Positions 26,162 to 64,000 are shown, counted from the stretch's first letter. The stretch is 64,000 bases of DNA from Candidatus Poribacteria bacterium (GCA_965214095.1 OZ243938.1:5056001-5120000); one strand, 5' to 3'. Numbers and translations are program-made. Notes: a model not told the origin generated them from the sequence alone.

Positions 26162-26225
26162 CTAATCTTCGGGCAGGAGACCCAATCCTTTAGGTTTGGG
26201 AGGAATGCCCGCTCCTATGTTTTTC

Positions 26226-26254
26226 TTGACAATAAATGTCAAACTTGCTAAAAT
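26226..26254 (+). promoter_or_regulatory. Internal sigma70 promoter of the mini-element
   Basis: TTGACA-17 bp-TAAAAT. Confidence 0.7.
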
Positions 26255-26257
26255 ATA

Positions 26258-26566
26258 TTCGGAAAGTTCAATCACACGTAGTCGTGTGTGAGGTTGTCCG
26301 CAGTCTTTGGTGCTATATGTTGCGGAGCATAAAACTGAAAAACATATACGCTCTCACTACCATAGACACATAACAATTGAGTGGTAGGGACATGGGAGGT
26401 AAAAAACCCAGTCCGAAAACACACTCTCAAATAATAAGTTGCTCTTTTAGAGCAAGTGAGGTTGCTTAGAACCCACTGTGGAGACGAAATAAGACGGATG
26501 ATCCTTTTGGTGAAACGCAACGTCTATGAAGCACAAGTCCAACCCTTTAGGTTTGGGTACTATGAC
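26258..26566 (+). ncRNA. Putative structured non-coding RNA (multibranch domain plus omegaRNA-like 3' part)
   Basis: TTCGGA(26258)/TCCGAA(26412) closing stem around TCACACG/CGTGTG, TCCGCA/TGCGGA and CTACCA/TGGTAG stems; then TTGCTCT-TTT-AGAGCAA; directly after the promoter. Confidence 0.5.
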
Positions 26567-26627
26567 TGGAGACCTCCATCGTAATGTAAGGTTTGTCAGA
26601 AAGACTTTGTCAATTTTAAGAACAGAA

Positions 26628-28955
26628 TTAACTTGTCTGCATCGCTTCTAAATCCATCAAACGACGTGCCTTCCGTACAAGCTTGAACAATTCTTTTTCC
26701 TGCTCTTCACTTTCGGAATTCTTAGACTGTAGTTGAGGTAGAATGCCTTTGAGAATTCGCTGCACTGCACCTAAACTACCATCCTTTGCCCAATAACTTT
26801 CGCGTAGGATTTCAGCGAATTGTGCGACTGAGGCAGCAACCTGAAAATCCGGTGTAGTATCTTCAAATGAATCTTTCAGGTCTTCAACGCTGATTTTTTC
26901 ATTGACTTCCGTCACCTCTGCTGTGTCAGGATCTTCATGCCGAATAAAGACAGTGGCAAGTTTCTCTTTATCCACATTCTTGCAGAGTTTGACTTCATAG
27001 AGTGCGGTAACACTGTGTCCCGAACCGATTTCACCCGCATCTGCTTCATCGTTACGGAAATCTTCGTGTTCCATCTGACGGTTCTCGTACCCTAACAATC
27101 GGAACCGACTGACTGTATCCTCGTTGAATTCCACCTGAATTTTCGCATCCTTTGCAATAACCTGAAGCGTGCCTGTCAGATTTTGCACAAAGATTCGTTT
27201 CGCTTCTCTGAGGCTGTCAACGTAGGCATAATTTCCGTTGCCTTTCTTGGCAAGTTCTTCCATTAGGACATCGTTGAAATTGCCCATGCCGAACCCGACT
27301 GTAGTGAGGTAAATATCATCTTGATCCACATAATCACGGATTTCTTTGAGTAGCATAGCGGGATCTGTTACCCCTTGGTTTGCCACGCCATCTGAGCATA
27401 AGATAACACGATTGATACAACCTTTTTCCGCATTCTTACTGGCAAGTTCATATCCTTTGTGTATCCCGTCTTCAACATTGGTTACACCTTCAGGACATAG
27501 AGCATCAATTGCATTCAAAATATGTTTTCGGTTCACTGCACTTGTATGTGGCAGAACAACCCGTGCATCTGTGCCGTAGACAACAATGCCGATCTTATCA
27601 TTCGGACCAAGTTGCTCTACTAAGAGACGTAACGCTTTCTTCACAAGACCTAATCGATTTTCCATACCCATTGAACCGGATACATCTATGACAAATGTTA
27701 GATTTGCATCCTTTCGGTCAGTATCTTCTATGATTTTTCCTTGAATACCGATACGGACTAATTGGAGTCTTTTACCGTTTCCAAATTTTGAGGGTGCCCC
27801 TTCAATGTGAACGGCAAATGCATCTTCTGTTGGCGGTGTGTAGTTGTAATCAAACGCATTGATAAATTCCTCAACTCTGACAGACTCTGGTTGTGGGAGA
27901 TTGCCATCGTGGAGAAAACGACGCATGACTGCGTAAGATGCAGAATCTGTGTCCATAGCAAAGGTAGAAAACTTGTCATCTTCTGTGTCAATGAAAGGAT
28001 TGGTGCCATGTCCTTTGAAGAATACATCGTGATATGCAGTTCCGTTTGGTGGGGTTAATCCCAATCTTGACACGGACTGTCTGCGTAACACAGATTGCTC
28101 CATGAGCCTTTCAGTACCTCTCACATTCAGAGGTATAGACCTTGATAGTCGCTGTTCCATTAGCTCTGGAGAAGAATTCGCCTTAACGAGAGAATCCATT
28201 GCAACACCAACACGTCCGCTGCGGAATTCTAGTTCAGATACTTCTGACAATCCAAAATCTTCTTCAAATGAGAGGAGTTCTGCAGCTGTACGTGGACGTT
28301 CAACCAAGGAATATGAACATACAAAGTTTTTGTCTAACTGGACATCGTTGCTTTGGTAGGTCAGTTTCGCAAGCCCTTCAGATTCTTGGTCAATCTTGAC
28401 AGCGTGTGAAGGGGAATTGACAGTTTTTATCCCAATTCCATTATCTATAACTATGGACATCTCAAAATTACCAACAGATTGGTTGCTTTTTAATGGATGC
28501 GTGTAGGTGATATTTTCATCAGTAAAATTTAGACGTTCATCATACCTTATCTGAACACTACACGCGCCTCTAGCAGGAATCTTTAACACCTTCGTCTGTA
28601 AGTGTGAAGATGTAATCGACTCTAAAATGTCAGCATCTGAAGTCTGGAAGGCATCCCCATATATCTCTTTTAATTTTTTCTTATTTGCCAGTTTAATAGG
28701 AATTACCTTTTTATCAATACGGACTTCATATCCCTTGTTTCTTTCCTGTTTAGGTTGTGGAATAATGAACACACCCTCAACTGGCGAATTATTTGGATTT
28801 CTGAAAACGACTTCAACATCCGTCTGAGTAATTGCGTTTTGAATTCGGACATTCAAAAGGTAGTGTTCAATAAGCAGCTTTTCAAACTTGCGGGTTTCAT
28901 CTGGACGTTGAAGAAATAAAGTTTGTGCTAATGCACGAAGTTCTGATTTTTTCAT
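26628..28955 (-). CDS. Chimeric VIT-like + YfbK-type vWA protein
   Basis: N-half similar to the VIT region of 23954..26161; C-half similar to 29365..31050 (DVSGS MIDAS, IAKDAKIQVEFN, DAGEIGSGH). Confidence 0.85.
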   Translation of the reverse strand: MKKSELRALAQTLFLQRPDETRKFEKLLIEHYLLNVRIQNAITQTDVEVVFRNPNNSPVEGVFIIPQPKQERNKGYEVRIDKKVIPIKLANKKKLKEIYGDAFQTSDADILESITSSHLQTKVLKIPARGACSVQIRYDERLNFTDENITYTHPLKSNQSVGNFEMSIVIDNGIGIKTVNSPSHAVKIDQESEGLAKLTYQSNDVQLDKNFVCSYSLVERPRTAAELLSFEEDFGLSEVSELEFRSGRVGVAMDSLVKANSSPELMEQRLSRSIPLNVRGTERLMEQSVLRRQSVSRLGLTPPNGTAYHDVFFKGHGTNPFIDTEDDKFSTFAMDTDSASYAVMRRFLHDGNLPQPESVRVEEFINAFDYNYTPPTEDAFAVHIEGAPSKFGNGKRLQLVRIGIQGKIIEDTDRKDANLTFVIDVSGSMGMENRLGLVKKALRLLVEQLGPNDKIGIVVYGTDARVVLPHTSAVNRKHILNAIDALCPEGVTNVEDGIHKGYELASKNAEKGCINRVILCSDGVANQGVTDPAMLLKEIRDYVDQDDIYLTTVGFGMGNFNDVLMEELAKKGNGNYAYVDSLREAKRIFVQNLTGTLQVIAKDAKIQVEFNEDTVSRFRLLGYENRQMEHEDFRNDEADAGEIGSGHSVTALYEVKLCKNVDKEKLATVFIRHEDPDTAEVTEVNEKISVEDLKDSFEDTTPDFQVAASVAQFAEILRESYWAKDGSLGAVQRILKGILPQLQSKNSESEEQEKELFKLVRKARRLMDLEAMQTS

Positions 28956-29096
28956 CGTGATCTCCTTTATTGTATTTTTGGGTTTGTGATTTGTGTGACT
29001 TAGTTGTAAATGGAAGAGTTGTTTTGCATTTAGTTGGAATATATCTTAAACGCAATATGGGAAGAGAAAAGGTATCTCAACTCTACAATTACGCTA

Positions 29097-29121
29097 AGAC
29101 GTTTTAGTGGCAAAAAGGTTT
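29097..29121 (-). promoter_or_regulatory. Possible ECF-sigma promoter
   Basis: Minus strand AAAC-16 bp-CGTCT upstream of 28955. Confidence 0.35.
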
Positions 29122-29158
29122 AATATATTTGGAAGTAAATCATGGTATCAGACAGAAC

Positions 29159-29185
29159 ATAGGGCGGGCACAAGGTCCGCCCTAT
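29159..29185. repeat. REP-like palindrome / possible terminator
   Basis: ATAGGGCGG-GCACAAGGT-CCGCCCTAT. Confidence 0.55.
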
Positions 29186-29211
29186 AATCTACAAGGAACT
29201 AAGCAGAAAGA

Positions 29212-31050
29212 TTAACCCTCTTCCTGTTCTTTCAACTGACGTGCCTTTTGCACAAGCTCAAGCAACTCCTCTTTCCGCTCTTCTTGCTGAGGTGTTTTTG
29301 ACTCAATCTCCTGAAGAACGCCTTCAATTGTCTCTTGAACAGTAGTTAAAGAACCTTTTTTTGCTCAAAAACTTCCCCGAAGGATTTCAGCGAACTCCGC
29401 AATTGCACCGACAAGTTGAAACTCAGCAGATGCATCTTGATATGAACCTTTCAATTGTTCTGAGGAGATAGTTTCGCTAACCTCTGTAACCTTTTGTGTG
29501 TCGGGGTTTTCATGCCGAATAAAGACAGTTGCAAGTTTGCCAATCGCATCTTCATGAAGTTTAATCTCATAGAGTGCGGTTACGCTATGTCCAGATCCAA
29601 CTTCCCCTGCGTCTACATCGTCTTTGCGGAAATCTTCATGTGCAAGTGCACGATTTTCATATCCGAGTAGGCGGAAACGACTGACTGTGTCGGGGTTGAA
29701 CTCAACCTGTATCTTTGCATCTTTTGCGATGACTTGTAGTGTGCCAGTAAGATTCTCTACGAACACCCGTTTTGCTTCTTTAAAGGTGTCAACATAAGCA
29801 TAACTACCGTTCCCTTTATTGGCAAGTCGTTCCATCAAAACATCGTTGTAGTTACCCATGCCAAAGCCGACTGTAGTAAGCGTTACACCTTCCTTAACAT
29901 AGTTCCCTATTGTATTAAGGATAGCATCAGGACCTGTATTCCCAACGTTTGCTACACCATCTGAACAGAGGATTACACGGTTGATGCAATTTGACTTTGA
30001 GTTCTTTAGTGCAAGTTTGTATCCCATCCGAAGTCCTGCTTCCGCATTCGTTGACCCTTCTGAACGAAGTTGATTAATTGCCTCTGTGATATATTCACGG
30101 TTCTCTATACCAGTATGTTCAAGAACAACCCGTGAATCAGAACCATAAACTACGATCCCAACCTTATCAGTAGGACGAAGTTGATCAACAAGAAGTGTCA
30201 ATGCTCTTTTCACTAAACCTAACCGATTTTCCATGTTCATTGAACCAGAGACATCAACCACAAAGGTAAGTATAGCGTCTTTTCGGTCTGTATCTGGAAT
30301 GACGCGACCTTGAATACCGACACGGAGTAACTGAAGTCGTTTACCTTCTCCAAATTTAGAAGGAGCACCTTCTACGTGAACTGCAAATGCATCATCTTTG
30401 GGAGGCGTATAGTTGTAATCAAACGCATTAACAAATTCTTCAGCGCGGATAGCGTCTGTAGGCGGAAGGTTTCCATCTCGGAGATAACGACGCATTACAG
30501 AATATGAAGCAGTGTCTACATCCATCGCAAATGTAGAGAAGTTGTCATCTTCTGTATCAATGAAAGGGTTGGTGCCATGGTCTTTATAGAAAACATCTTG
30601 ATACGCTGCACCGTTTGGTGGGTTTAATTGCGGTGCTTGTAGTTGTAATGATGCTACTTGATTTGGTTGGCTCGCTGCACGCGAATAAGCCAATTGTGGT
30701 GTACTATTTACTACACTCAGGTTGGAGTGGATACTCGCTTTAGGCACAGGTACATTGGAAGCAATTGACTCTGACGATTTCATCATCCTTTGGGAAATTG
30801 GTTTAGATAGTCTTTTGGTGTGTGCAACCGTCTCTTGCACCGTAACATTCTGCGGACTAACTATACCTCTCACAATTGGTCTACTAAGTCTTGGTTTCGG
30901 TGGATCCGGTGGTTCAAACGTCTCTACTGCGACGACATCTTTGATTTGCTGGGTTTCTTGGTTATCTAAACGAAGGTTGATGATAGTTACAACGATGAGG
31001 AGGAGCGCAAGTGAAATAAAAAACGCCCCTGCGATTCTTTTGATACGCAT
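29212..31050 (-). CDS. YfbK-type vWA protein with N-terminal anchor; premature TGA at 29365-29367
   Basis: vWA/DUF3520-like; frame continues 50 codons past the TGA with homology to the paralog's C-terminus. Confidence 0.8.
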
Positions 31051-31210: not shown

Positions 31211-32740
31211 TCATCTTTCATTTTTTGTCTGAGTCTGTTGCAAGTATTCTGATATCTGTTTTGTTAATCTTTTTTCAATAGTCTTCATTTTCGGTACCCC
31301 CGCGAGATTGTTTGTTTCATTTGGGTCATCATGCACATTAAACAGCAGATAAGGGGTTCCTTCTCTATTTAATACCATTTTCCACTCTTGATTCAGCAGC
31401 ATAATTTCACGAGATATTTCGGAAATAGCGAATTCACGGTGTGGTGCTTCTGTGTCATCAAGAACAGGAGACAAGGACTTTCCGAACTGTCTATGCTTCA
31501 ACTCCCCTCCCGCCATTTCAACGAGTGTGGGTCCGATATCAATCCATTCAACAGGACTATCACAAGTGCGATCAGTGGTTGTGTCTTTTAAGGTATCAGG
31601 TGTACGCACAAGAAATGGAATTCGGACTGCTCCATTTAGGAGGTTACTTTTGTAAATCAACCCATAATCTCCGTTCATCTCACCATGGTCAGAACAGAAA
31701 ACGATGACAGTATTATCCAGTTCTCCGCGTTGCTCAATTGCACCCAAGATTTCGCCAATTTGATCATCAATGAGGGTAACATTTCCAGCATAATCCGCAC
31801 GCATTTTTGCCACATCACCTGCGTCAAATTTAGGACTTTTCTTCTTATTTTTCATAAGGTTGTCTAAACTTCCACGAGGACGGTTTTCTGCAGCTTGACG
31901 AGGTACGGGTTGTGGCATATCATCCGGATTATACATACTTGAATAAGGTTTTGGACAATCCCAAGGTTCGTGAGGTCCACCGAAACTCACCCAGCAAAAC
32001 CAAGGTTCTTTGCGGTTATAGTCTTGAAGATATTGCTTTGCTTGTTGTCCAACGTATACATCCGCATCATTTTCAAGTCCGAGTGGAGTGGGACGAACAA
32101 GATGAGGTCTCGTTTTGAAACGTTCCTGATAGTCCTCACGGTATGCTTTCCAGATACCTTTCTCTTCCCACATTTCTGTCATATAGGATAGGCATTTCAT
32201 ACTTGCTCGGGGACCACCAATCTCATTCACATCGTCTAATCCGTAAGCGTGCATCAAATGCTCACGTTTACGAAGATCACCAGTATTCGTGTGGAGATGT
32301 GTTTTACCGAATAGACTCGTGCGATATCCTGCCTCTCGGACAGCTTGCATCCATGTTGGAGTATCAGGTTTCATCTTATGCTTTTGGTTGTTCCAAACGC
32401 CGGTGTTGTGTGGATACAATCCTGTTGCTAAACTGAGGCGTGCAGGAACACAAACAGGTGATGTAGTAACACAATTAGTAAAACGTACACCCTCGTTTGC
32501 AATTCTGTCCATGTTTGGTGTTTGAACCCAATCACCACTGCACCCCATGGCATCCCACCGTTGCTGGTCTGTCATCAGAAGAAGGATGTTCGGTTTCTTG
32601 GACTCACTTGCAGGTTGTTGATCTGCCTTCGCTCCCTGTACACCAGTGTTTGTGGCAACAAGTGATATAGCACCTGCTCCTGCTACACCTAGATTCTTGA
32701 TGAACGTTCTGCGATTGATTTTATCGGATTTAGTCTTCAT
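31211..32740 (-). CDS. Tat-exported sulfatase
   Basis: NRRTFIK Tat motif; CVPAR; GKTHL; SDHG. Confidence 0.9.
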   Translation of the reverse strand: MKTKSDKINRRTFIKNLGVAGAGAISLVATNTGVQGAKADQQPASESKKPNILLLMTDQQRWDAMGCSGDWVQTPNMDRIANEGVRFTNCVTTSPVCVPARLSLATGLYPHNTGVWNNQKHKMKPDTPTWMQAVREAGYRTSLFGKTHLHTNTGDLRKREHLMHAYGLDDVNEIGGPRASMKCLSYMTEMWEEKGIWKAYREDYQERFKTRPHLVRPTPLGLENDADVYVGQQAKQYLQDYNRKEPWFCWVSFGGPHEPWDCPKPYSSMYNPDDMPQPVPRQAAENRPRGSLDNLMKNKKKSPKFDAGDVAKMRADYAGNVTLIDDQIGEILGAIEQRGELDNTVIVFCSDHGEMNGDYGLIYKSNLLNGAVRIPFLVRTPDTLKDTTTDRTCDSPVEWIDIGPTLVEMAGGELKHRQFGKSLSPVLDDTEAPHREFAISEISREIMLLNQEWKMVLNREGTPYLLFNVHDDPNETNNLAGVPKMKTIEKRLTKQISEYLQQTQTKNER

Positions 32741-32744
32741 AGGA

Positions 32745-34121
32745 TTATTTTTTGGTTTGTGTGTGAAATAGGTGTTCTAAAATTTGCAGCCTTAGTTCTG
32801 TTTCTAACTCTTTCATTTCGGGTTGTCCAGCAAGGTTATTTATTTCATCTGGGTCATCTTGCACATTAAAGAGAAGATAAGGTATACTATCACCGTTTAG
32901 CGCAATCTTCCATTCCTTATTGAGCAGCATGATTTCACCCGATATTTCAGAGATCGCAAACTCACGGTGCGTTGCTTCGGTGTCAGCAATAGCGGGACAT
33001 AACGACTTGCCATACTGCCGATGTTTCAATTCACCGTCAGCCATTTCAACAAATGTTGGACCGATATCAATCCATTCAACAGGATTGTCGTTGATTATCC
33101 CTTCTGTGCCATTTTTTACTGTTTCGGGAGTTCGGACAAGTAGAGGGATACGCACTGATCCATTGAGGAAGTTACCTTTGTATATCAGTCCGTAATCTCC
33201 GTTCATTTCACCGTGGTCTGAAGTGTGAATGATGACGGTATTATCAAGTTCACCCCATGCTTCAATTGCTTCAAGTATTTCACCAATCTGATCGTCTATG
33301 AGTGTTATATTACCAGCATAGTCTGCACGTAACCTTTGTTCCTCACCCTCTTCAAATTTGGGATTCATCCGATTCATCATATTGTCTAAATTACCACGAG
33401 GACGATCTCCAGCAGGTTGACGTGGAATAGGTGGTGGCATATCTTTTGGGTCATACATACTGGCATAAGGTTCGGGTGTATCCCACGGTTCATGAGGTCC
33501 ACCGAAACTTACCCAGCAGCACCACGGTTCTTGTCGGTTGTAATTCTGTATATACTTCTTTGATTGTTGACCGACGTAAACATCAGCATAGTTTTCAAGA
33601 CCAAGTGTTGAAGGACGAACTATGTAGGGTTTTGTGCTGAATCTTTCTTTATAATCCTCACGGTAACCTTGCCAAAGTCCTTTCTCCTCCCACATCTCTG
33701 TCATGTGAGACAGAACTCGACTACTTGCTCGTGGTCCGCCTATTTCATCAACATCATCTAAACCATACGATTTCATTAAATCTTCTCTGTCACGTAAATC
33801 TCCGTTGTGCGGATGAAGGTGTGTTTTTCCGAAAAGACTGGTGCGGTAGCCTGCATCACGTACCGTCTGCATCCAAGTTGGAGTATCAGCAGACATCGAA
33901 TGATGCATGTTATTCCAAACACCCGTATTGTGCGGATATAAACCCGTTGCTAAACTGAGACGTGTAGGGATACAGACCGGAGATGTGGTCACGCAGTTAG
34001 TAAAACGGACACCTTCATTTGCAATTCTATCTAAATTAGGTGTTTGCACCCAATCACCACTGCAACCCATTGCATCCCATCGTTGTTGGTCTGTCATGAG
34101 GAGAAGTATATTTGGTTTCAT
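32745..34121 (-). CDS. Cytoplasmic sulfatase (close paralog of neighbour)
   Basis: CIPTR; no signal peptide; long identical blocks with 31211..32740. Confidence 0.9.
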   Translation of the reverse strand: MKPNILLLMTDQQRWDAMGCSGDWVQTPNLDRIANEGVRFTNCVTTSPVCIPTRLSLATGLYPHNTGVWNNMHHSMSADTPTWMQTVRDAGYRTSLFGKTHLHPHNGDLRDREDLMKSYGLDDVDEIGGPRASSRVLSHMTEMWEEKGLWQGYREDYKERFSTKPYIVRPSTLGLENYADVYVGQQSKKYIQNYNRQEPWCCWVSFGGPHEPWDTPEPYASMYDPKDMPPPIPRQPAGDRPRGNLDNMMNRMNPKFEEGEEQRLRADYAGNITLIDDQIGEILEAIEAWGELDNTVIIHTSDHGEMNGDYGLIYKGNFLNGSVRIPLLVRTPETVKNGTEGIINDNPVEWIDIGPTFVEMADGELKHRQYGKSLCPAIADTEATHREFAISEISGEIMLLNKEWKIALNGDSIPYLLFNVQDDPDEINNLAGQPEMKELETELRLQILEHLFHTQTKK

Positions 34122-49282: not shown

Positions 49283-50305
49283 CTAATTTTCTGTCTTTAC
49301 ATGCCCCCAGAAAGTTAAGTATCTGCTTAATGCTGTTACATCCAGACTATCAATATTATATTCCTCTACAGTAGGTAATATTTGAGGACCAAGACCCTCC
49401 GCAACACCACCAATAGCGTAAATGTGATTATCTACAACATCTGAGCCCAAAAACACACGTGCAGTTGGCATATCTGCCCCTTTTTGCCATTCGTCTGTTA
49501 ACGGGTCGTAAATTTCAACCGTCATTTCGCCTGCACCTTGAACAACTGTAGTCCCACCAATTGCATAGATTTTAGAATTAACAACACTTGCTGTCAATGC
49601 AGTTCGGGGTGTGGGTATCGCAGCTTTTTCAGTCCAAGTGTCAGTCTTTGGATCGTATTCAGCAACGTTTTTAATAAAAGGTCCCGCAACCCCTTCAACA
49701 CCACCAATTAGGTATATTTTACCATGATGTTCTGCAGCTGCCATTCCAGAACGAGGGTTAGGCATATCCGTTTTTTGTGTCCATTTGTCCGTGGTTGGAT
49801 CATACTCCTCAACAACCGATAACACAGGACCCACATTCATGGCAACGCCTCCAAAAGTGTATATTTTCCCTTCCACAGCAACAGCGGAGAAAAATGAACG
49901 TGGTGTTGGCATATCTGCCTTTTGCGTCCAAGTATCAGTCTTAGGGTCATATTCTTCTACTGTGCCAACAGCAGGATTTTCACCATCCCATCCTCCGATC
50001 GCATATAACTTACCATCTACTTCACATGTTTCTACACCAGCACGTGCAGATGGCAAACTTGCTTTCTGAACCCATTCGTCTGTTTCTGTATTGTATGCCT
50101 CCACACTGTCTATCGGTTGAGCAAGCATTCCTCCTACAGCATAAACCTCTTTGTCTACTGCAGTAACAGAAAAGAAAAGTCTCGGATTTATCATTCCCGT
50201 TTTCTCAACCCATTCTTGAGCATTGACACTGTTAATAAATAAGAATAATATCAAAATGCAAAATAGCCAACTTGATCTACGAATAAAATTATGATGTGCT
50301 TTCAT
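49283..50305 (-). CDS. Secreted Kelch-repeat protein
   Basis: Six 'KIY.IGG...VEEYDP.TD.W..K..MP..R' repeats; C-terminal 'DVTALSRYLTFWGHVK'. Confidence 0.9.
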   Translation of the reverse strand: MKAHHNFIRRSSWLFCILILFLFINSVNAQEWVEKTGMINPRLFFSVTAVDKEVYAVGGMLAQPIDSVEAYNTETDEWVQKASLPSARAGVETCEVDGKLYAIGGWDGENPAVGTVEEYDPKTDTWTQKADMPTPRSFFSAVAVEGKIYTFGGVAMNVGPVLSVVEEYDPTTDKWTQKTDMPNPRSGMAAAEHHGKIYLIGGVEGVAGPFIKNVAEYDPKTDTWTEKAAIPTPRTALTASVVNSKIYAIGGTTVVQGAGEMTVEIYDPLTDEWQKGADMPTARVFLGSDVVDNHIYAIGGVAEGLGPQILPTVEEYNIDSLDVTALSRYLTFWGHVKTEN

Positions 50306-53752: not shown

Positions 53753-56002
53753 TCATTTATCTGTAATATCCCAAATGAGTACCGTGCCATCCAAACTGCC
53801 ACTCGCAAGCGTGCTTCCATCAGAACTATATGCAAGGGAAGTTAACCCGAACTGCCCACTAAAGGACGAAATGATTTGAAATAAATTCATGTCCCAAAAG
53901 TGGATAGAACCATCACCATTCCCATTTGCCAGTATTTTTCCATCAGGACTGTAAACGAGTGAGGATACCTTACTTCGACCTCGCGCAGTGATATTTGGTG
54001 GGTCATCAATTTCCCTTGGCAGACTCGGAGACGGGTCAAAAAGATCGTTTCCAATAAGAGAAACTTTGTGCTTACCTGTATTTGGATCCCATAAATGGAT
54101 TGAACCATCTCCACATCCACTTGCAAGTGTTCTCCCATCAGGACTGAAGGTGACAGTCTGTATTCTATCTGTATGTCCTTCAAGCGTAGTAATAAGTTTC
54201 CGATTACGTACATCCCATAGACATATAGTTTTATCCTTACTACCACTTGCAGCTATACTTCCATCTGGACTCAAAGCAACTGAAGTGATTTGGTCTGTAT
54301 GTCCCTTTAGTTTTGCTTTCTGGGGACCAATGAAAAATCCCAAAACTCGTTGGAATATTGAATCTGATTCTGCAGCCTTTGCATCCCAAATTCGTAGCAT
54401 TCCATCTGAACCACCTGTTACAAAGATATTGCCTTCGGTATTATACGATATTCCACCACCATGTGATATATGATAACTATTCTTATCTATTGCTTTACTA
54501 TGTCCTTTTTGAGTCTTCTGATATGCGCCTGTTTCCGCGTTCCAAAAGAAGATTTCTGCTTTTCCTGCAGGACGCATATTTAGGCTTGCTAACGTTTTTC
54601 CGTGTGGAACAAATGTCAGAGATTGAATATATAATTGATACGGATACCCATCACAAGTAGTATTGAGTTTTCCATTTACCACATCCCATAGCCTAATCTT
54701 CTCTAGATGATGACCACTTGCGAGAATATTTCCCTCATTATTAAATGCAATAGAACTTACTTCACCGTTATGGCGTTTAATGATATGACGTAGTCCAGAT
54801 TTTTTTGTATTTTCTTTATCTATTTTCCATAAGTAAATACGTGTTTCTTCATTATTCATAGAACTTCGTGCAGCAAGCGTGCGTCCATCTGGACTAAACA
54901 TTAGATAATAGAAGTGTCCATTTTCTCTAAATAAAAATTTGGGTTCTCCATCCTCAGTATTCCAAAAGATTATACCACCATTTGTTGATACAGCGAGTGT
55001 GCGTCCATCTGGACTGAATTTAATTGATGTAACTCTTTTTGTTGGATAATTCACTATCTTAGGTATGTTATTAGCTATAGCCAGGATTTTTAAATTTCGT
55101 GGATCGTTGGCCAGTGTATTCTTCAGTTGACCTGTCTGTGTATCCCATAACTGCACCTTATAATCATCGATTCGTGCCGTAGCGAGTGTCTGCCCATCTG
55201 GTGATATTGTAAATGGATGTCGATAATGACCTTCAAGTTCAATTCTCATTTGCAACTTACCAGTATTTGAATCCCAGAACTTCGCTTCATTTTTAGAAAA
55301 ACAGAATAGAGCACTCCCATCGTTGATAAAAACAATGTTATTAGCACCTGTTGTATCTTCTAATTTTGCTATAAAACTTCCAGTTTCAATGTCCCATACC
55401 AGAACTTCTTTTTTTTTGCTACTTACTATAGTTTTTCTATTCGGACTAAACATCACACTGGAAACTCTTTTGTGGGGTGTTGTAATCACACGGTGTTCCC
55501 CATTTTCAATGTTCCATAGCCTTATTTTGTTCGAATAATCTGTACTTGCAAGCATTTTTCCATCAGAACTAAAACTGACTGATAAAACTCTATTGGTATG
55601 ACCCTCAAGGGTGGTTTTGATTTGGTTGGAATTTAAATCCCATATATCAATCTTATGCTTTCGCATATTTGCACAGAGTTGTAAATCTGGACTTAGAATG
55701 ATATTATCTGTCAAATATCCATTTATTTTTGATAAACTTATCTCTTTTCCTGTCATAACATCGTATAACCAGACACCAATAGAAGTTATCACAGCAAGTT
55801 TCGTATTGTCAGATGAAAATTGATATGAATTTCCCTTTCCTATAGTCGTGAGATGGCTTTCCAGGTTTGCCATTTTGCCCTTACCAAGTCTCAACTTTGC
55901 ACCTTTTGGCAATTCCCATAGTGTGTAGTCATCCGAATATGAGTATGAAAGAAATGTCAAAGTTAATAGAGATATTGCAATCATTGCATGAATCGTTCTC
56001 AT
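53753..56002 (-). CDS. Secreted WD40-repeat protein
   Basis: 'W.LPKGAKLRLGKG' N-terminus; many 'GHT..V.SV.FSPDG..LASG..D..I.LWD' repeats. Confidence 0.92.
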   Translation of the reverse strand: MRTIHAMIAISLLTLTFLSYSYSDDYTLWELPKGAKLRLGKGKMANLESHLTTIGKGNSYQFSSDNTKLAVITSIGVWLYDVMTGKEISLSKINGYLTDNIILSPDLQLCANMRKHKIDIWDLNSNQIKTTLEGHTNRVLSVSFSSDGKMLASTDYSNKIRLWNIENGEHRVITTPHKRVSSVMFSPNRKTIVSSKKKEVLVWDIETGSFIAKLEDTTGANNIVFINDGSALFCFSKNEAKFWDSNTGKLQMRIELEGHYRHPFTISPDGQTLATARIDDYKVQLWDTQTGQLKNTLANDPRNLKILAIANNIPKIVNYPTKRVTSIKFSPDGRTLAVSTNGGIIFWNTEDGEPKFLFRENGHFYYLMFSPDGRTLAARSSMNNEETRIYLWKIDKENTKKSGLRHIIKRHNGEVSSIAFNNEGNILASGHHLEKIRLWDVVNGKLNTTCDGYPYQLYIQSLTFVPHGKTLASLNMRPAGKAEIFFWNAETGAYQKTQKGHSKAIDKNSYHISHGGGISYNTEGNIFVTGGSDGMLRIWDAKAAESDSIFQRVLGFFIGPQKAKLKGHTDQITSVALSPDGSIAASGSKDKTICLWDVRNRKLITTLEGHTDRIQTVTFSPDGRTLASGCGDGSIHLWDPNTGKHKVSLIGNDLFDPSPSLPREIDDPPNITARGRSKVSSLVYSPDGKILANGNGDGSIHFWDMNLFQIISSFSGQFGLTSLAYSSDGSTLASGSLDGTVLIWDITDK

Positions 56003-56471: not shown

Positions 56472-57350
56472 TTACCGAAGCCATCGGTATGCTTGCACAC
56501 CTTTGGAATTCTGCAGGGCAAACTCCCACCTTTTACACCATGTTTCATAATCTGTTTGACATGCTTCAGGACGCAGACGACTCCGCATCAAAAAAGATGG
56601 GTAGTAGGGTCTACCTGTCGGTTGATACACATCGTGATAACGCAAATCTAAACTCCATCGAACTGTATCAGATTTATTCGGTTTAGCACTGTGTAGCGTG
56701 TAATTATGAAACAAAATTACACCACCAGCGCGTATTGGCAAAACCTCTGGTGTTAAGTTCGGTGGTTGATGTTCAGGTGGAACTGCTAATCCTGCTTCAT
56801 TCCAACCGTGCGTTAACAACCCAAATTTATGACTACCCGGTAGCACTTGTAGACACCCATTTTCTTCAGTCACATCTACAATTGGAATCCAGATCGTAAG
56901 CATGAAGTATGGGTCTGTGTCTGGCCAACACACTCCTGCGTCCTGATGCCAAGGTATCGGCAATTGTTGAGTCTTCTCTATTGGTAGAATTGGACGGATA
57001 TGTTGTATTGGATTACACACAATCTCAGAACCAACAAGTGATTCTGCAAGATCAAGGATCTTTGGATTTTTGAGGAAGTTGAACGTTGCTTCTCCGCGCG
57101 CTCGCATAATGTCTAAGTCTGATGTTACCTCTGATGCTTCGGCAGCAAGGCACAGCAGACGTTCAGTGAATGGTTTTTCAGTGTATGTAGAAGTTGTCTT
57201 CCCTCCCTTGTATAGTTTCTCAGCACGTTTATCAATAATATCAGAATACTCATCAATCACAGAAGCTAAGTCCCTCTCATCCAATATATCTTCAAGTAGA
57301 AGATACCCGTTCTCATGGAAAAACGATACTTCCGATTCAGTTAGACGCAT
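56472..57350 (-). CDS. Phytanoyl-CoA dioxygenase (PhyH) family protein
   Basis: PWHQD, NGCLQVLPGSH, LH.A..N....RWS; ATG 57350 after GGAGG. Confidence 0.88.
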   Translation of the reverse strand: MRLTESEVSFFHENGYLLLEDILDERDLASVIDEYSDIIDKRAEKLYKGGKTTSTYTEKPFTERLLCLAAEASEVTSDLDIMRARGEATFNFLKNPKILDLAESLVGSEIVCNPIQHIRPILPIEKTQQLPIPWHQDAGVCWPDTDPYFMLTIWIPIVDVTEENGCLQVLPGSHKFGLLTHGWNEAGLAVPPEHQPPNLTPEVLPIRAGGVILFHNYTLHSAKPNKSDTVRWSLDLRYHDVYQPTGRPYYPSFLMRSRLRPEACQTDYETWCKRWEFALQNSKGVQAYRWLR

Positions 57351-57372
57351 AAAAACCCTCCATGTGTCGTCT

Positions 57373-58179
57373 TTATCCCCATCTCTGTTCAGGCGGATCA
57401 AAGACAAATCCGTGAAAAAACTTACGTTGTTCAGGTGAAAGTTGTGAGTTATAGAAGTCTTTTGGATACCCCCAATGTTCTTGTGAGGCAATCATCCATG
57501 GATGTTCATAAGCGTAATATAACATTTCACGTGTCGCTTCCGGCTTGGTAAAAATACCGGCTGAATGCCAGAGCGCGTTATGAAACAGTATAGCACTGCC
57601 TGCAGGTGCACATACCTCCAATGCTCCAGGATATTGATACGGATAACGCAAGTCTTCATGATTTGGTTCATTCAACGCTTTATGACTACCCGGTATGAGC
57701 CAAAGATTACCTTGTCCACTATCTGTCATATCTGTGAGATAGTACCCAACTTTGAGTTGTAGCAAGGGAATTGGACGCAGGTTGCGAAAACCATCATCAT
57801 GTCCATCAATGTGCCATCCCATCGGACGATCCATAAGTTCCTCGCCAAATTCAACAAGGGCATCTGATGCGTGGTGGTGCGGCATCTGATTGAGAAGACC
57901 CGCGACATAAGGTAGCATCGGCTGCCAATCCAACAGTTCTAAGAACAGCGGATGATCACCAAGAATATAGAAGATACGTGTGCTCTTCTCTCCGTGAATA
58001 TGTGTCATTCCTGTTTGCTGTAAACCTTTTTCCTCACATTCACGACGTTTATCAATTGTGTCTGCAAGGGTACTTCTAAGAGAAGTTATATGTGCTTCTT
58101 CAAGAAAAGACTCTAATACCAAATATCCGTTGTTTTCAAAGAAGAAACGTTGTGCATCCGTTAACTCGTGTGTCATCAT
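57373..58179 (-). CDS. Phytanoyl-CoA dioxygenase (PhyH) family protein
   Basis: GWHID, IPGSH, LWH. Confidence 0.85.
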   Translation of the reverse strand: MMTHELTDAQRFFFENNGYLVLESFLEEAHITSLRSTLADTIDKRRECEEKGLQQTGMTHIHGEKSTRIFYILGDHPLFLELLDWQPMLPYVAGLLNQMPHHHASDALVEFGEELMDRPMGWHIDGHDDGFRNLRPIPLLQLKVGYYLTDMTDSGQGNLWLIPGSHKALNEPNHEDLRYPYQYPGALEVCAPAGSAILFHNALWHSAGIFTKPEATREMLYYAYEHPWMIASQEHWGYPKDFYNSQLSPEQRKFFHGFVFDPPEQRWG

Positions 58180-59315: not shown

Positions 59316-62300
59316 TTACATTCCTCCACGCGGACTCCATTGTACCATATAATCGGAAGGCACTTCGCGGATGAACATAGACGTAGAAAGCTCACGATCA
59401 CCATATCGGTAGATTGTAGATGACAGAAACAGTTGCTTCTGAGCACGAGTCATACCTACGTAAAAAAGCCGACGTTCCTCTTCAAGCTCAGCATCAGTGG
59501 TGTCCTGTTTCCACATCGGAAAACTCCCTTCCTCCATTCCGATGATTATGACAACAGGAAATTCCGTGCCTTTTGCAGCATGAAGTGTCATTAATGTAAT
59601 CTGTTCTGTGTCATCATCTATCTCATCATAATTCGTCAGTAATTTCTGAAAACCCAAGAACTCTAATAGGCTGTTCCCTTGATCTGACTTCAGATATTGC
59701 AAAAGTAGAGTCCGAAACTTTGATTTAGTTTCTATCCAAGCAGTGTCCTCTTGCATAATAGGAACATCAGTCTCTTCTAACTCTTTAAAGTAAGCTTCAA
59801 CTTGTTCCTCTTCTGTTGACTCAAAGGGGAGATCTTCATGTATCTGTTGAGAACCTTCCTTGACCACACGTATAGCAGCGTTTAAAAATGCCCTCTCTTC
59901 TGTAATATTCTTGTCGTTTTTAACTGAAATATCTGTTTTGTCAAGAATACCAAGACCAACAAACGGCAATAAATCGGTAAGTGATTGCACTTCTCGCTTC
60001 TTTAGGTCAATCCTTATCAATTCCTTGAAAATTTGTCTGTTTACTTCAACATCTTCCATAGCACGATGTAAAGTTTTGTGTTCAATTCCAAATTTCTCAG
60101 CAAGTGATTCAATACCACATCGTTGACGAGGAAATAGTCTACGTGCGGTGACAAGTGTATCGTAGTAGGGATTTGTCAGATTCTGATCTAAACAATCCTG
60201 TAATCCACGTTCCAGAATTGGGTTGTCATACTGCGCGACATTATGTCCAATTAGGATACGATCTTGAATGAAACTATAGAATTTCGGGAGAACCATCTCA
60301 ATACTCGGTGCGTCCTTTACATCCTCACTACTTATACCGTGAACTTTCGTAACTGACGGTGGTATGTATCCACCGGGTGGTTTCACTAAGCGAGAAAACT
60401 TCTCAACTTCATTGCCAATTACATTAAGCCGTTTCGCTGCAATCTCAACAATATTTGCGCGTCTGATATCAACACCTGTAGTTTCTAAATCATAAATCAC
60501 CATATCAGACATATTCGGTGTTTCAAATCTACTCAATAACCGTTGGCAAAGTTTTAATGCGGCGATACAACGTATCTTACCTGAACCAAGTTGAATCACA
60601 TCTGACTGTTCAGAGATGGTAGTACCGATAAGAATTGATCTCGTCTCTATACCCTTTTCTCCCAGTTCTCCAAAGTCGCCAATAAGTATATTAACTGCAT
60701 TTCTGTTGAGTAGCTGTTCACTGTCACCATCTGAGGTTTCATTTTTGGGTAAATATTGGACTTCTACATTCTGATCAAGATAAGATTGTAGTGTTTGACT
60801 AATTATATATGCTGAACAATATTCATCTATGCCATAACTTGCAGTGATCTGAATTTGTTCACCACGATCAAGAACACTATACAGAACATCTTGGGCCAAA
60901 CCCAAATTTGATAAATCCGACTTATTCTCAATAGCAGCTAACTCTTTGTTGCGGTATGGACTTCGTATCATGTCTAATTTTTCAAATAGAATATTGACAA
61001 TTTTATCTATTTTTTTATCTTCAATTTCATCTTCCAATGTTGCCAATTGTTCCCAAAAACTACTGATGTTCTTTCGTGTTAATGGACCGACATCCTCTGG
61101 ATACTGTTCAATATTCCGTAGGAGTTCTTCCAATTCTAATTTTTCACGTTTTGCTAACCACTTCAGTCGCACCCAAGTAAGATCGTCAACCCTTTTTTCA
61201 GGAAAGTTAATTGCGATTTCTAAGTCACGTGGAAGTCGCCACTGAATATAACAGAGATATGAAAGAATACCCTTCAGTCTTTCGTCATCAAAGGAATTGG
61301 TTGGTCGTATCCGTTGAAATTTTATTTTAGATCGTATCAATTCTTCTGTCAGAACATCCGCGAGTCTGTGTGTCCTGTAAAATACGGCAATGTCGCGATA
61401 TGAAACATTCCGTTCACTAATCAATTTACTGATAATCCTGATAATAGTGCGTGCTTCCTCAACAGGAGTCATAAATGTATAGTGAAATATATCCCGTCCT
61501 TCATCTTTGTGGGATATAAGACTGTGCTGAGCCTGTCGCAAAGGATTATTCGCAATTACTTCTTCTGCAGCGCGTAGAATCGTTTCACTACATCTATAAT
61601 GATCGTCTAATTCAACTGTATATGGAGAGTAATTAGTTTTGAAATCGTCTATGAACTGCGGATTTGACCCGCGCCAACTGTAGATAGACTGGTCAGCATC
61701 CGCAACAACCATCAGATTGTTCTCTGGTGGAGCAGTAAGGAAACGAAGAAGTTGGTATTGAACTTCGTTCACATCATGATATTCGTCAACAAGGATGTGT
61801 GAAATCTTTTGATGGTATTCCTGCTGTACTTCAGCAACTTGTTCAAAAAGTATCACCGTTCTTATCAACAGATCATCAAAATCAAAGGCATTGTATTCAT
61901 TAAGTTTGCTATGATAGGCATTGAAGGCATTTACTATATTCGCTTCAGCATCAGGATCGTCTATTTCCGCGATATAATCCTGTTTAATCTCTATATTATT
62001 CTGAGCATAATCAAGTTTGCATTTTGCGTCGCTGATTGCATTCCGTAGTAACCACACAGGATAATCATTTGGGTGAAGATTCAACTCCTTTATGACTTCT
62101 ACGAGTATTTCATCCTGTATTTCTTGGTCAAAAATAGCAAAGTTTTCACTCAGACCGATGTGATGTACGTGACTTCTGAGCACCTTCACACAAAAAGCAT
62201 GAAATGTGGAAACATTAATATTTGAACCGTGCGGTTCTCCAATTTCATTGTTGACACGATCACGCATCTCTTGTGCGGCTTTATTCGTAAAAGTAATCGC

Positions 62301-62465
62301 AAGGATATTACCAGGCTTGATTCCGTGATGACGAATTAGGTAAGCAATACGGTGCGTAATGACTTTTGTTTTACCCGTACCAGGACCTGCAATTACAAGT
62401 ATCGGTCCAGTGTTGTGTTTTACTGCTTCTGTCTGTTTTTCATTTAAATCGTGGAGAATGTTCAT
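59316..62465 (-). CDS. UvrD/PcrA-family helicase with inserted RecJ-like and DEDDh exonuclease domains
   Basis: AGPGTGKT, DEYHD, DQSIYSWRG, MTLHAAKGTEF, EERRLFYVGMTRA; insert with DLETTG..HNVAQYD..HRAMED. Confidence 0.88.
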   Translation of the reverse strand: MNILHDLNEKQTEAVKHNTGPILVIAGPGTGKTKVITHRIAYLIRHHGIKPGNILAITFTNKAAQEMRDRVNNEIGEPHGSNINVSTFHAFCVKVLRSHVHHIGLSENFAIFDQEIQDEILVEVIKELNLHPNDYPVWLLRNAISDAKCKLDYAQNNIEIKQDYIAEIDDPDAEANIVNAFNAYHSKLNEYNAFDFDDLLIRTVILFEQVAEVQQEYHQKISHILVDEYHDVNEVQYQLLRFLTAPPENNLMVVADADQSIYSWRGSNPQFIDDFKTNYSPYTVELDDHYRCSETILRAAEEVIANNPLRQAQHSLISHKDEGRDIFHYTFMTPVEEARTIIRIISKLISERNVSYRDIAVFYRTHRLADVLTEELIRSKIKFQRIRPTNSFDDERLKGILSYLCYIQWRLPRDLEIAINFPEKRVDDLTWVRLKWLAKREKLELEELLRNIEQYPEDVGPLTRKNISSFWEQLATLEDEIEDKKIDKIVNILFEKLDMIRSPYRNKELAAIENKSDLSNLGLAQDVLYSVLDRGEQIQITASYGIDEYCSAYIISQTLQSYLDQNVEVQYLPKNETSDGDSEQLLNRNAVNILIGDFGELGEKGIETRSILIGTTISEQSDVIQLGSGKIRCIAALKLCQRLLSRFETPNMSDMVIYDLETTGVDIRRANIVEIAAKRLNVIGNEVEKFSRLVKPPGGYIPPSVTKVHGISSEDVKDAPSIEMVLPKFYSFIQDRILIGHNVAQYDNPILERGLQDCLDQNLTNPYYDTLVTARRLFPRQRCGIESLAEKFGIEHKTLHRAMEDVEVNRQIFKELIRIDLKKREVQSLTDLLPFVGLGILDKTDISVKNDKNITEERAFLNAAIRVVKEGSQQIHEDLPFESTEEEQVEAYFKELEETDVPIMQEDTAWIETKSKFRTLLLQYLKSDQGNSLLEFLGFQKLLTNYDEIDDDTEQITLMTLHAAKGTEFPVVIIIGMEEGSFPMWKQDTTDAELEEERRLFYVGMTRAQKQLFLSSTIYRYGDRELSTSMFIREVPSDYMVQWSPRGGM

Positions 62466-62580: not shown

Positions 62581-63630
62581 CTATTTTGTGGGTCTAAAGA
62601 GTTCGTCCAACACAACCGTCGCATACCCTCCTGCCGGCAAAGTAAAACAGAGGTGTAACCCATGATCAATAGGTTGAATCTCATGGACTTCCATTTTTAT
62701 ACGAAATGGTCGACGAGTACCGGGTAACCTTATCCCAGCTACCTTGCGAAATGTTTCCAGTTTCACATCTTCCTCTAATAGGAGTTCCATTTCCATCTTT
62801 TCCACATGACCAGTAGGTTGCCGCATCTTGTAGCCGAAGATAGGACCTGTCGGACTAATCTCAAATACATCTGCTCGCATCTGTTCAACTGAAGCGTTGT
62901 CAACATTGAACGGAGCACCGTTGCTGTGCTTAACTGCTACATCTCCATCTAAAAGTTCTCCGATATTAGGAAAACGTCTTGCCAAAATGCAATTAAACAG
63001 ATGTGCTTGATAAGCAGACAAATACAACTTTCTGAGTCGATGTGGAATATATCTAATCGCTTTTACTTCATCTAATCGCTGTGGAAGCCTACTGATTTGT
63101 CCTGTCTCGTTTGTTGATAAATGCACTATTACTTCTTCCCAATTACCTTTCATCAACGCTTTGCCAATCAGGTGGGTGTTTTGCTTGTTCCCAAATCTTT
63201 GTGAACCAAACCAATTTGGAACTCCCTCTTTTGCCAACTGTTCTAATCTCTCAGAAATAATTGAGTAATCATCTCTAACAACATCACGCAATGTAATAGT
63301 GAATCTATTCCCTTGAAGATGACCAACCCGCAATTTATGTTCATGTCTTTCTGCCCACAACACCTCTATAGATGGCAGTTCTATGGTCATTATCTTTTCT
63401 GGTGTGATTCCATCTATTGACAAAACTTGGGTAGTGATTGCCCTTTTATCCTTCAATCCTGCATAACCTATATCTCTTTGATTGACTTGTAAAGTCTCTG
63501 CGATTTTCTTAATCGCATCAAAAGTGCTGATATTCCGTTTGAGAATTGCAAAATAGGTATGTGTACCAATACCGGTCGGTTCATATAATGGTATTTCTTC
63601 AACAATGAAATCTTCCGGTTCAAATTGCAT
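62581..63630 (-). CDS. truD: tRNA pseudouridine(13) synthase
   Basis: PEDFIVEE, GYAGLKD, G.L.GNRF, PNWFG.QRFG, F.LPAGGYAT; start set after GGAGG. Confidence 0.92.
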   Translation of the reverse strand: MQFEPEDFIVEEIPLYEPTGIGTHTYFAILKRNISTFDAIKKIAETLQVNQRDIGYAGLKDKRAITTQVLSIDGITPEKIMTIELPSIEVLWAERHEHKLRVGHLQGNRFTITLRDVVRDDYSIISERLEQLAKEGVPNWFGSQRFGNKQNTHLIGKALMKGNWEEVIVHLSTNETGQISRLPQRLDEVKAIRYIPHRLRKLYLSAYQAHLFNCILARRFPNIGELLDGDVAVKHSNGAPFNVDNASVEQMRADVFEISPTGPIFGYKMRQPTGHVEKMEMELLLEEDVKLETFRKVAGIRLPGTRRPFRIKMEVHEIQPIDHGLHLCFTLPAGGYATVVLDELFRPTK

Positions 63631-63712
63631 CATTTCCTCCGTTTGTATCATAATGCTTATTGTATCTGATTGTCAAGAATTAATAATGTGGTAAAGGGTG
63701 ATTCATATACAC

Positions 63713-63790: not shown

Positions 63791-64000
63791 ATGCCAAAAA
63801 TCAAAATACTCTCAGCCGATGTGGCAAATAAAATTGCTGCAGGTGAAGTCGTTGAACGACCTGCCTCGGTTGTCAAAGAACTCATAGAAAACGCCGTTGA
63901 TGCTGATAGCACCAGCATCCGTGTTGAAATACGCGCAGGTGGAAAACGACTCATACGTGTCACTGATAACGGCACAGGTATGGAACGTGAGGACGCACTC
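63791..64000 (+). CDS. mutL: DNA mismatch repair protein MutL (5' part, runs off the window)
   Basis: [38 protein letters not shown]...[10 protein letters not shown]. Confidence 0.95.

Follow-up and report, generated by a model that had tools for sequence, protein, structure and literature searches.

We describe a composite helicase gene in a 64,000-nucleotide stretch of DNA from Candidatus Poribacteria bacterium (GCA_965214095.1 OZ243938.1:5056001-5120000); this whole stretch is called the window below, and coordinates are counted from its first letter. The gene is an open reading frame (ORF) at 59316..62465 on the minus strand and encodes 1049 amino acids, exactly as given in an earlier note made from the sequence alone, which had read the product as a UvrD-type helicase enclosing a dead RecJ-like scaffold that in turn encloses an intact DnaQ-type exonuclease. 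The peptides on which that note relied are all present in the translation (LSNLGLAQDVLYSVLDRGEQIQITASYGIDEYCSAYII at residues 517-554, CIAALKLCQRLL at 633-644 and LTDLLPFVGLGIL at 829-841), as are DLETTG (659-664), HNVAQYD (741-747) and HRAMED (800-805). We divide the protein into the following parts, given in the order of the polypeptide.

60972..62465, minus strand: N-terminal part of the helicase, residues 1-498, with domains 1A/1B and the first parts of 2A and 2B (Pfam UvrD-helicase, PcrA alignment)
60510..60971, minus strand: N-flank of the insert, residues 499-652, a putative degenerate DHH (RecJ-like) domain from motif I to the 'GVAF'-type helix
60006..60509, minus strand: predicted DEDDh 3'-5' exonuclease of the DnaQ/RNase T type, residues 653-820 (Pfam RNase_T; D659, E661, D747, H800, D805)
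59805..60005, minus strand: C-flank of the insert, residues 821-887, of which 825-847 would continue the DHH relic (motif IV region) and the remainder leads back to 2B as a helical linker
59319..59804, minus strand: C-terminal part of the helicase, residues 888-1049, with the rest of 2B and 2A and motifs V and VI (PcrA 488-646 aligns to 888-1040; Pfam UvrD_C_2)

The helicase core and the site of insertion

Judged by its sequence, the protein is a PcrA/UvrD-type SF1A helicase, a member of the family but not an annotated equivalog. Pfam places UvrD-helicase at residues 7-279 (E 4.7e-82), UvrD_C, split, over 285-1016 (E 1e-41) and UvrD_C_2 at 957-1014. The PcrA core aligns from end to end (E 5e-102), with residues 8-489 of PcrA (1pjr) on residues 3-498 and the remainder beyond the insert, and UvrD1, UvrD and Rep align likewise. 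The SF1A motifs follow in order, i.e. GPGTGKT (Walker A, 27-33), DEYHD (motif II), DADQSIYSWRGS (III), HYRCS, TLHAAKGTEF (V) and EERRLFYVGMTRA (VI), and are invariant in all 30 close relatives of our conservation set (61-92% overall identity), beside which we kept a divergent set of 12 sequences. Motif II, at about residues 226-231 (window 61776-61790), differs from the DExQD of PcrA, UvrD and Rep; its His230 stands in 30/30 close relatives in place of the usual Gln of DExQ, and the divergent set has six His, five Gln and one gap. Among curated helicase models PcrA scores best, yet the equivalog cut-offs are all missed (PcrA 504.5 against 911.2 bits, Rep 408.3 against 951.45, UvrD 372.3 against 1144.45). 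Residue 1040 of 1049 aligns to residue 646 of the 724 of PcrA, and as the chain ends just nine residues later the C-terminal Tudor-type extension is absent. The Poribacterial protein resembles PcrA, UvrD and Rep in its core alignment, its complement of SF1A motifs and its 1A/1B/2A/2B layout, and differs from them by a 390-residue insert in 2B, its DEYHD motif II, the missing Tudor-type extension and its sub-cut-off scores.

Since PcrA aligns only to residues 3-498 and 888-1040, the insert comprises residues ~499-887, approximately 390 residues. It falls between residues 515 and 569 of UvrD1 (the PDB chain is possibly from another Mycobacterium species, so that the numbering may shift slightly), and because PMC13646824, in the part available, assigns aa 404-585 of M. 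smegmatis UvrD1 to domain 2B, we place the insert within 2B. The Pfam matches and the PcrA and UvrD1 alignments bear out the earlier description of SF1A motifs flanking a large insert in the 2B region.

The DEDDh exonuclease domain

The centre of the insert matches Pfam RNase_T over residues 656-813 (E 1.9e-29; 103.8 bits against a cut-off of 24), and the match covers positions 1-164 of the 164 in the profile. The catalytic residues D659, E661, D747, H800 and D805, which make up the ExoI D-x-E, ExoII D and ExoIII H-x4-D motifs, are invariant in 30/30 close relatives, and 11 of the 12 divergent sequences keep all five, the exception being P0136, discussed below. The domain is thus complete, as the earlier note had claimed, and this conservation argues for the retention of DEDDh catalysis in most lineages.

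By sequence, the nearest solved relative is the PolC exonuclease 2p1j (E 3.8e-22), and more broadly the domain lies nearest to PolC-type and DnaQ proofreading domains and to the DnaQ-GIY-YIG family PRK07883. These relatives are DNA-directed, which bears on the idea that the protein acts on RNA or RNA:DNA hybrids, for instance by removing nucleotides from RNA 3' ends as R-loops or stalled transcripts are stripped off by the motor. The DEDDh superfamily does include RNases (RNase T, Orn), and the available text of PMC8318588 reports a role for PcrA/UvrD in R-loop suppression. However, the protein is also without the C-terminal extension that, according to the part of PMC13646824 available, forms the RNA-polymerase/Ku-binding Tudor domain in PcrA/UvrD1, and we consider an RNA-directed function very improbable.

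The proposed RecJ-like relic around the exonuclease

The sequences on either side of the exonuclease are less readily assigned. As a single sequence the N-flank has no match in Pfam (E <= 10) or in a phmmer search of the PDB (E <= 10), the C-flank has none in Pfam, and a look-up of residues 505-652 in the ESM Atlas returned nothing usable. Structure prediction of the N-flank alone gave a model (pLDDT 78.6, pTM 0.77) with two N-terminal helices followed by strand-helix-strand-strand-strand-strand-helix; the loop that follows the second strand contains two helices of one turn each. When this model was compared with the PDB by Foldseek, ranks 1-7 were all of RecJ type (TMq 0.54-0.64, E 2e-4 to 7e-4); the top ranks include the archaeal RecJ-Cdc45 protein 7bih (TMq 0.61), Thermus thermophilus RecJ 1ir6 (TMq 0.64, 20% identity), P. 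furiosus RecJ and D. radiodurans RecJ, and the best SIS domain appears at rank 8 with a TMq of 0.50. Over the 39 rows listed, 21 are named as RecJ, nanoRNase, NrnA or DHH-type phosphodiesterase, 11 are of SIS type and two are other proteins; four further entries are named 'DNA replication protein', which we take to be GAN, and 7e15 is presumably GAN as well.

Profile comparison points in the same direction. We aligned the flank in 29 rows (19 of the 25 related loci described below, nine further family proteins and the window's own sequence) and compared it by hhalign with a RecJ/DHH profile of 13 sequences, namely E. coli RecJ and 12 plasmid- or chromid-borne homologues at 24-55% identity. Residues 16-63 of the flank aligned with RecJ 50-97 at a probability of 86.2% (P 4.9e-6, score 47.2), with motif I and the helices on either side of it in register, and none of 150 column shuffles reached the real score (14.3 +/- 2.4, maximum 23.0; reversed flank 14.2). 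Against E. coli RecJ alone the family alignment again matched motif I, with flank 19-53 on RecJ 53-87 (P 0.024). Among 29 single sequences, the nine best matches are all RecJ/DHH proteins, i.e. nine of the 13 RecJ/DHH templates, whereas the controls (three SIS proteins, a flavodoxin, a HAD protein and others) remained at background, and a three-sequence SIS profile gave P 0.11. In a global alignment IGDFG falls on motif II, ILIGTT on the DHH triad and IRCIAALKLCQRLL on the 'GVAF' helix of RecJ, with low posterior confidence past residue 63; this reproduces the strand-by-strand mapping on RecJ that had first been made by eye. For the C-flank (38 sequences) the best local match is RecJ 218-240, the motif IV segment, with a score of 20.5, which 0/100 shuffles reached (12.2 +/- 1.8, maximum 17.9), and this match is co-linear, as it begins directly after the end of the N-flank alignment. 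Because the fold matches of the flank, the N-flank profile alignment and the co-linear C-flank agree, we read the insert as a DHH domain split by the exonuclease. The predicted fold and the sequence profiles thus support descent of the flanks from a DHH (RecJ-like) domain, and the fold and profile comparison with RecJ that the earlier note had proposed did find the DHH-fold similarity on which its reading depended.

Several results weigh against this ancestry, most of them in favour of a rival reading in which the flanks are a generic linker domain of small Rossmann-like type, either SIS-like or without a definite descent, whose likeness to RecJ arose by fold convergence. The Pfam DHH model finds nothing on the flank at E <= 10. 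Our family profile, which was built over the full length of 1047 positions and not for the flank alone, retrieved no DHH protein among the best 60 of its 62 matches to PDB sequences, only relatives of the helicase and the exonuclease and one chance Rossmann match on the flank (9mqy, E 0.077). A first prediction, which covered the insert in full, was poor overall (pLDDT 61.3); its N-flank was confident but its DEDDh part scored under 50, and its fold search gave SIS domains mixed with many DHH-family proteins at E ~1e-3, headed by the SIS protein 3sho (E 7.6e-4). With the second model, of the flank alone, the Foldseek E-values are marginal (2e-4 to 8e-3 over the list), SIS domains follow closely at 8e-4 and still attain a TMq of 0.49-0.56, and the helices that usually link DHH strands 2-3 and 3-4 are missing or reduced. 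Nevertheless, the sharp difference between the RecJ and SIS profiles in hhalign, the motif I register, the independent placing of the C-flank on the next RecJ segment and the RecJ-type proteins at the head of the fold list speak against convergence, and we regard the generic linker as improbable.

As a nuclease, the DHH domain appears to be dead. Only the last Asp of motif I is kept (D547, in 30/30 close and 12/12 divergent sequences). The motif II equivalent, D597, is Asp in 26/30 close and 7/12 divergent sequences, G-T/S/A-x stands in place of the DHH triad, where none of the sequences has a His, and the motif IV position is occupied by Lys or Arg in place of Asp. The loss of the DxD and DHH catalytic residues had already been noticed in the first reading of the sequence, and it extends through the family. 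Neither a DHHA1 domain (GGGH) nor an OB fold is found by Pfam, and the chain is back in the helicase at residue 888, directly after the C-flank. With the DHH residues gone and no DHHA1 domain present, the scaffold cannot be an active RecJ. Even so, the core of the flank (residues 520-575) is as conserved as the N-terminal part of the helicase (mean identity 0.69 against 0.71, and 0.55 against 0.55 in the divergent set); the dead scaffold is under selection. The loop at 576-590 varies freely (mean identity 0.24), and the C-flank is the least conserved region (0.48).

Distribution and origin of the architecture

The nested arrangement recurs throughout the family. A search for relatives, scored on residues 505-905, gave 1655 matches, of which we describe the best 120. 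These are 56-93% identical to the query; most are ~1040-1060 aa long with the same set of Pfam domains, a few are shorter fragments, and some lie on contigs of 4-6 Mb. The named records among these best 120 of 1655 belong to 'Candidatus Poribacteria'. Taking one genome per species, we found 25 loci with a relative, 24 titled Candidatus Poribacteria and one 'uncultured bacterium', with seven on records titled 'chromosome: 1'. Each of the 25 has a single full-length copy, which aligns over its whole length in one unbroken stretch (1045-1136 columns). The earlier note had raised the possibility of an assembly chimera absent from related genomes; the 25 full-length loci, seven of them on complete chromosomes, rule this out. 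Since the architecture is the same in every full-length relative that we examined, its recurrence is far beyond chance.

When the N-flank alone was searched against 1.84 billion cluster representatives, 16 matched at E <= 0.001. Seven of these are long (1037-1134 aa) and carry the flank at approximately residues 500-680; the six scanned with Pfam all have both helicase and RNase_T domains, and the seventh, P0018, has the same set in precomputed annotation. The most divergent cluster is also labelled Poribacteria. Among these 16 representatives the flank occurs only inside helicases of this family, and no stand-alone RecJ-DnaQ protein that could have served as donor was found. Proteins shorter than 576 aa that match the insert are either internal gene fragments running into helicase sequence (e.g. 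residues 392-950) or unrelated DnaQ proteins that match through the nuclease only and cover at most 51% of the query. The proposal that the insert was captured from a RecJ-DnaQ fusion consequently finds no extant donor, and stepwise insertion and capture from such a fusion are equally possible. A further family member, P0118 (807 aa, on a 1.46-Mb contig), joins a fragment equivalent to residues 400-782 (78% identical) to a DDE transposase domain (PF01609), and looks like a copy of the gene disrupted by an insertion sequence.

Gene neighbourhood

Upstream of the helicase gene the window holds the following genes.

62581..63651, minus strand: truD, encoding tRNA pseudouridine synthase D (Pfam TruD, E 4.9e-96), directly upstream of the helicase gene and on the same strand
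63791..64000, plus strand: 5' end of mutL, read from the sequence, divergent from truD and running off the window

The helicase gene is therefore one gene away from a divergent mutL, as first described, with truD between them. At the related loci, truD lies upstream of the helicase gene in 14/25, and a mutL match (93-100% identity over 69 aa) lies within 6 kb of it in 9/25, transcribed divergently and never adjoining it, with truD in between. Six related loci hold a full-length MutL ORF of 626-637 aa. All four of the full-length MutL sequences that we inspected carry DQHV(X)2E(X)4E, ACR, CPHSRP and FHR, the motifs by which the MutL endonuclease is defined, and the neighbouring mutL is predicted to be of the nicking type in 6/6 full-length copies. 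The endonuclease motifs of Poribacterial MutL are variant, with Val in place of the usual Ala in DQHVAAERVLYE and Ser in place of Gly in CPHSRP, at the related loci L008:1304-3184 (-), L015:1181-3091 (-), L007:447-2327 (-) and L018:90-1967 (-). A strict endonuclease pattern missed all 9/9 ORFs and a looser one found the variant.

The neighbours also bear on whether the protein, in place of repair, might serve phage defence as the helicase-nuclease of a Gabija-like or comparable system. Defence-system models of PADLOC do match it, GajB models best at E 1.9e-99 and a CRISPR-associated DEDDh model at E 1.3e-33, but these matches are generic to the UvrD and DnaQ families, and the curated PcrA, Rep and UvrD models score higher. 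The gene stands, moreover, among housekeeping neighbours (truD, mutL, an amidohydrolase and PhyH proteins) in an order that is partly kept in related genomes, it has no GajA-type partner adjoining and no nuclease family among the window's other large ORFs at E <= 1e-5, and each of the 25 related loci has a single full-length copy. A role in defence is therefore unlikely, and we give it little credence.

The rest of the window resembles ordinary chromosome, with sulfatases, VWA, WD40 and Kelch proteins and shikimate genes; no second uvrD, no recJ and no mutS was found within its 64 kb. Sulfatases and eukaryote-like repeat proteins are gene content typical of Poribacteria. The window has three sulfatase genes (21787-23145, 31211-32740 and 32745-34121, minus strand), a Kelch-repeat protein at 49283-50305 (-) and a WD40-repeat protein of 749 aa with a signal-like N-terminus at 53753-56002 (-). 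Two ORFs of PhyH-family dioxygenases at 56472-58179 (-) overlap by 119 bases (57373-57491). Because the downstream one begins at TTG, and at related loci often just ~293 residues align, its true start is probably further downstream. A paralogous cluster at 23954-31050 (-) encodes three consecutive large proteins with VIT/VWA/YfbK_C domains (735, 775 and 561 aa), and an ORF of 1283 aa at 2456-6307 (+), which adjoins a SurA-like chaperone gene (1118-2449), has as its sole Pfam match a PPIC-type rotamase domain at residues 378-472.

Comparison with known systems

Helicase-nuclease fusions are well known, and among the closest are RecB, AddA and AdnB, which also combine an SF1A motor and a nuclease in one chain; our searches found AddA, RecB and an AdnB-type protein (UvrD/REP, 6ppr) through the helicase part. 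In these proteins the nuclease is a C-terminal PD-(D/E)xK domain and the enzymes work in heteromeric end-resection machines, whereas the Poribacterial protein has a DEDDh domain inside 2B and shows no sign of a partner subunit. WRN, whose exonuclease is of the DEDDy type, and Gram-positive DinG likewise combine a DNA helicase with a 3'-5' exonuclease of DnaQ type, and models of DinG match the exonuclease part of our protein; S. aureus DinG (SaDinG) has both helicase and exonuclease activities according to the available text of PMC12345164. DinG and WRN are SF2 helicases with an N-terminal exonuclease, whereas the Poribacterial protein has an SF1A motor, with the nuclease in the interior of the chain and nested in what appears to be a second, dead nuclease fold.

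The flanks share the predicted DHH fold, and probably sequence ancestry, with RecJ, which has inactive relatives in archaeal RecJ-Cdc45/GAN and eukaryotic Cdc45. Cdc45 is a catalytically inactive RecJ homologue and a structural subunit of the CMG helicase, and offers a parallel to a dead DHH domain kept as a scaffold within a helicase machine. Compared with RecJ, the Poribacterial relic would be the DHH half only, without the linker helix, DHHA1 and OB domains and with the DHH triad and motif IV Asp lost; unlike its RecJ relatives it lies within the chain of an SF1 helicase and has a further domain inserted into it. For the nesting, a precedent is provided by PolC, which is also the nearest solved relative of the exonuclease, as the PolC exonuclease is a DEDDh domain inserted inside a PHP domain. 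The host in that case is a polymerase with another host fold, whereas here it is a helicase.

Proposed mechanism and mismatch repair setting

We favour, as the most probable account of these results, a PcrA/UvrD helicase specific to the Poribacteria, whose 2B domain carries a dead RecJ-like relic that hosts an intact DEDDh exonuclease, the whole working as a single-chain helicase-exonuclease. The outer level of insertion would be the N-terminal half of a RecJ-like protein, i.e. its DHH domain, with the catalytic residues lost, and the inner level the DEDDh exonuclease, placed in a loop of the relic that leads from the 'GVAF' helix to the motif IV segment. Going by their conserved motifs, the motor and the nuclease both appear to be active. 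Starting at a nick or a 3' tail, the motor would track 3'-5' along one strand and the tethered DEDDh domain would hydrolyse the freed 3' end, so that one polypeptide would be equivalent to UvrD plus ExoI/ExoX. The dead DHH domain may rigidly couple the nuclease to 2B, which is mobile and autoinhibitory, and may add contacts to single-stranded DNA or to partners, while access to the nuclease could be coupled to the conformational switch of 2B.

Further points speak against this account. In structures of PcrA/UvrD, the 2B domain lies near the duplex ahead of the motor and the 3' end of the tracked strand leaves on the 1A side, and this geometry does not obviously satisfy a picture in which the nuclease trims a trailing 3' end. 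The poor model of the whole insert does not fix the placement of nuclease, relic and helicase relative to one another. The association with mutL within 6 kb is confined to the 9/25 loci described above. Finally, P0136, a divergent Poribacterial protein of 1037 aa that represents a cluster of seven, keeps the whole insert with the changes E661A, H800S and D805I; in this lineage both nuclease folds are probably dead, nuclease activity would be dispensable, and retention of the insert despite the loss of three exonuclease residues favours a role that is partly structural or regulatory.

The last point leads to a reading in which the insert is mainly a regulatory or oligomerisation module, i.e. 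an enlarged 2B domain that alters autoinhibition, dimerisation or partner binding, with exonuclease chemistry secondary. The P0136 lineage would fit it, as would a catalytically dead flank that is as conserved as the motor; in the DHH family, NrnA and GdpP are examples of enzymes whose DHH domains mediate dimerisation. In the available text of PMC13646824, 2B is an autoinhibitory switch relieved by 2B-2B dimerisation or by partners. Five DEDDh residues that are invariant in the close relatives and retained in all but one of the divergent sequences stand against it, and we hold a mainly regulatory insert to be unlikely, if still credible, in comparison with the single-chain helicase-exonuclease.

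As for the process that such an enzyme would serve, the part of PMC13646824 available describes 2B as autoinhibitory and as the site through which MutL activates E. coli UvrD. Excision from nicks made by MutL is the most attractive setting for the Poribacterial protein, but it is only suggested, by partial synteny with a nicking-type mutL, as is the excision role in mismatch repair put forward in the earlier note. A bolder version would have a housekeeping UvrD/PcrA turned into a self-sufficient excision machine, in which a fossil RecJ scaffold, in a part like that of Cdc45 in CMG, holds a live exonuclease on a MutL-responsive 2B domain, the nicking MutL licenses it, and the enzyme unwinds and degrades the error strand. 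We offer this as a speculation that is rather unlikely to hold in full, although if true it would give a concrete answer to how excision proceeds in mismatch repair without MutH.

Novelty and significance

The nested arrangement of helicase, RecJ relic and exonuclease appears to be undescribed. No paper found in the literature searched describes a DEDDh domain, or a DHH relic, inside the 2B domain of a UvrD-family helicase; one paper that mentions both UvrD and Poribacteria, PMC3444138, was considered as a prior description and set aside, as its available text concerns indels of Verrucomicrobia. In public records the proteins bear generic names, i.e. 'UvrD-helicase domain-containing protein' and 'exonuclease domain-containing protein, partial'. 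Among the known helicase-nuclease fusions, a nuclease inside the 2B domain of an SF1A helicase is likewise not described in that literature, and the protein would offer a natural experiment in how movement of 2B can control a further enzymatic function. In bacteria, the dead DHH scaffold would exemplify a RecJ-derived domain that a helicase retains for its structure alone, parallel to Cdc45, and the three levels of nesting would document how multifunctional repair enzymes can arise as domains are inserted one after another. A link to MutL, if there is one, would make the protein relevant to excision in MutH-independent mismatch repair, a step that is poorly understood. For the phylum Poribacteria itself, the protein is a clear marker.

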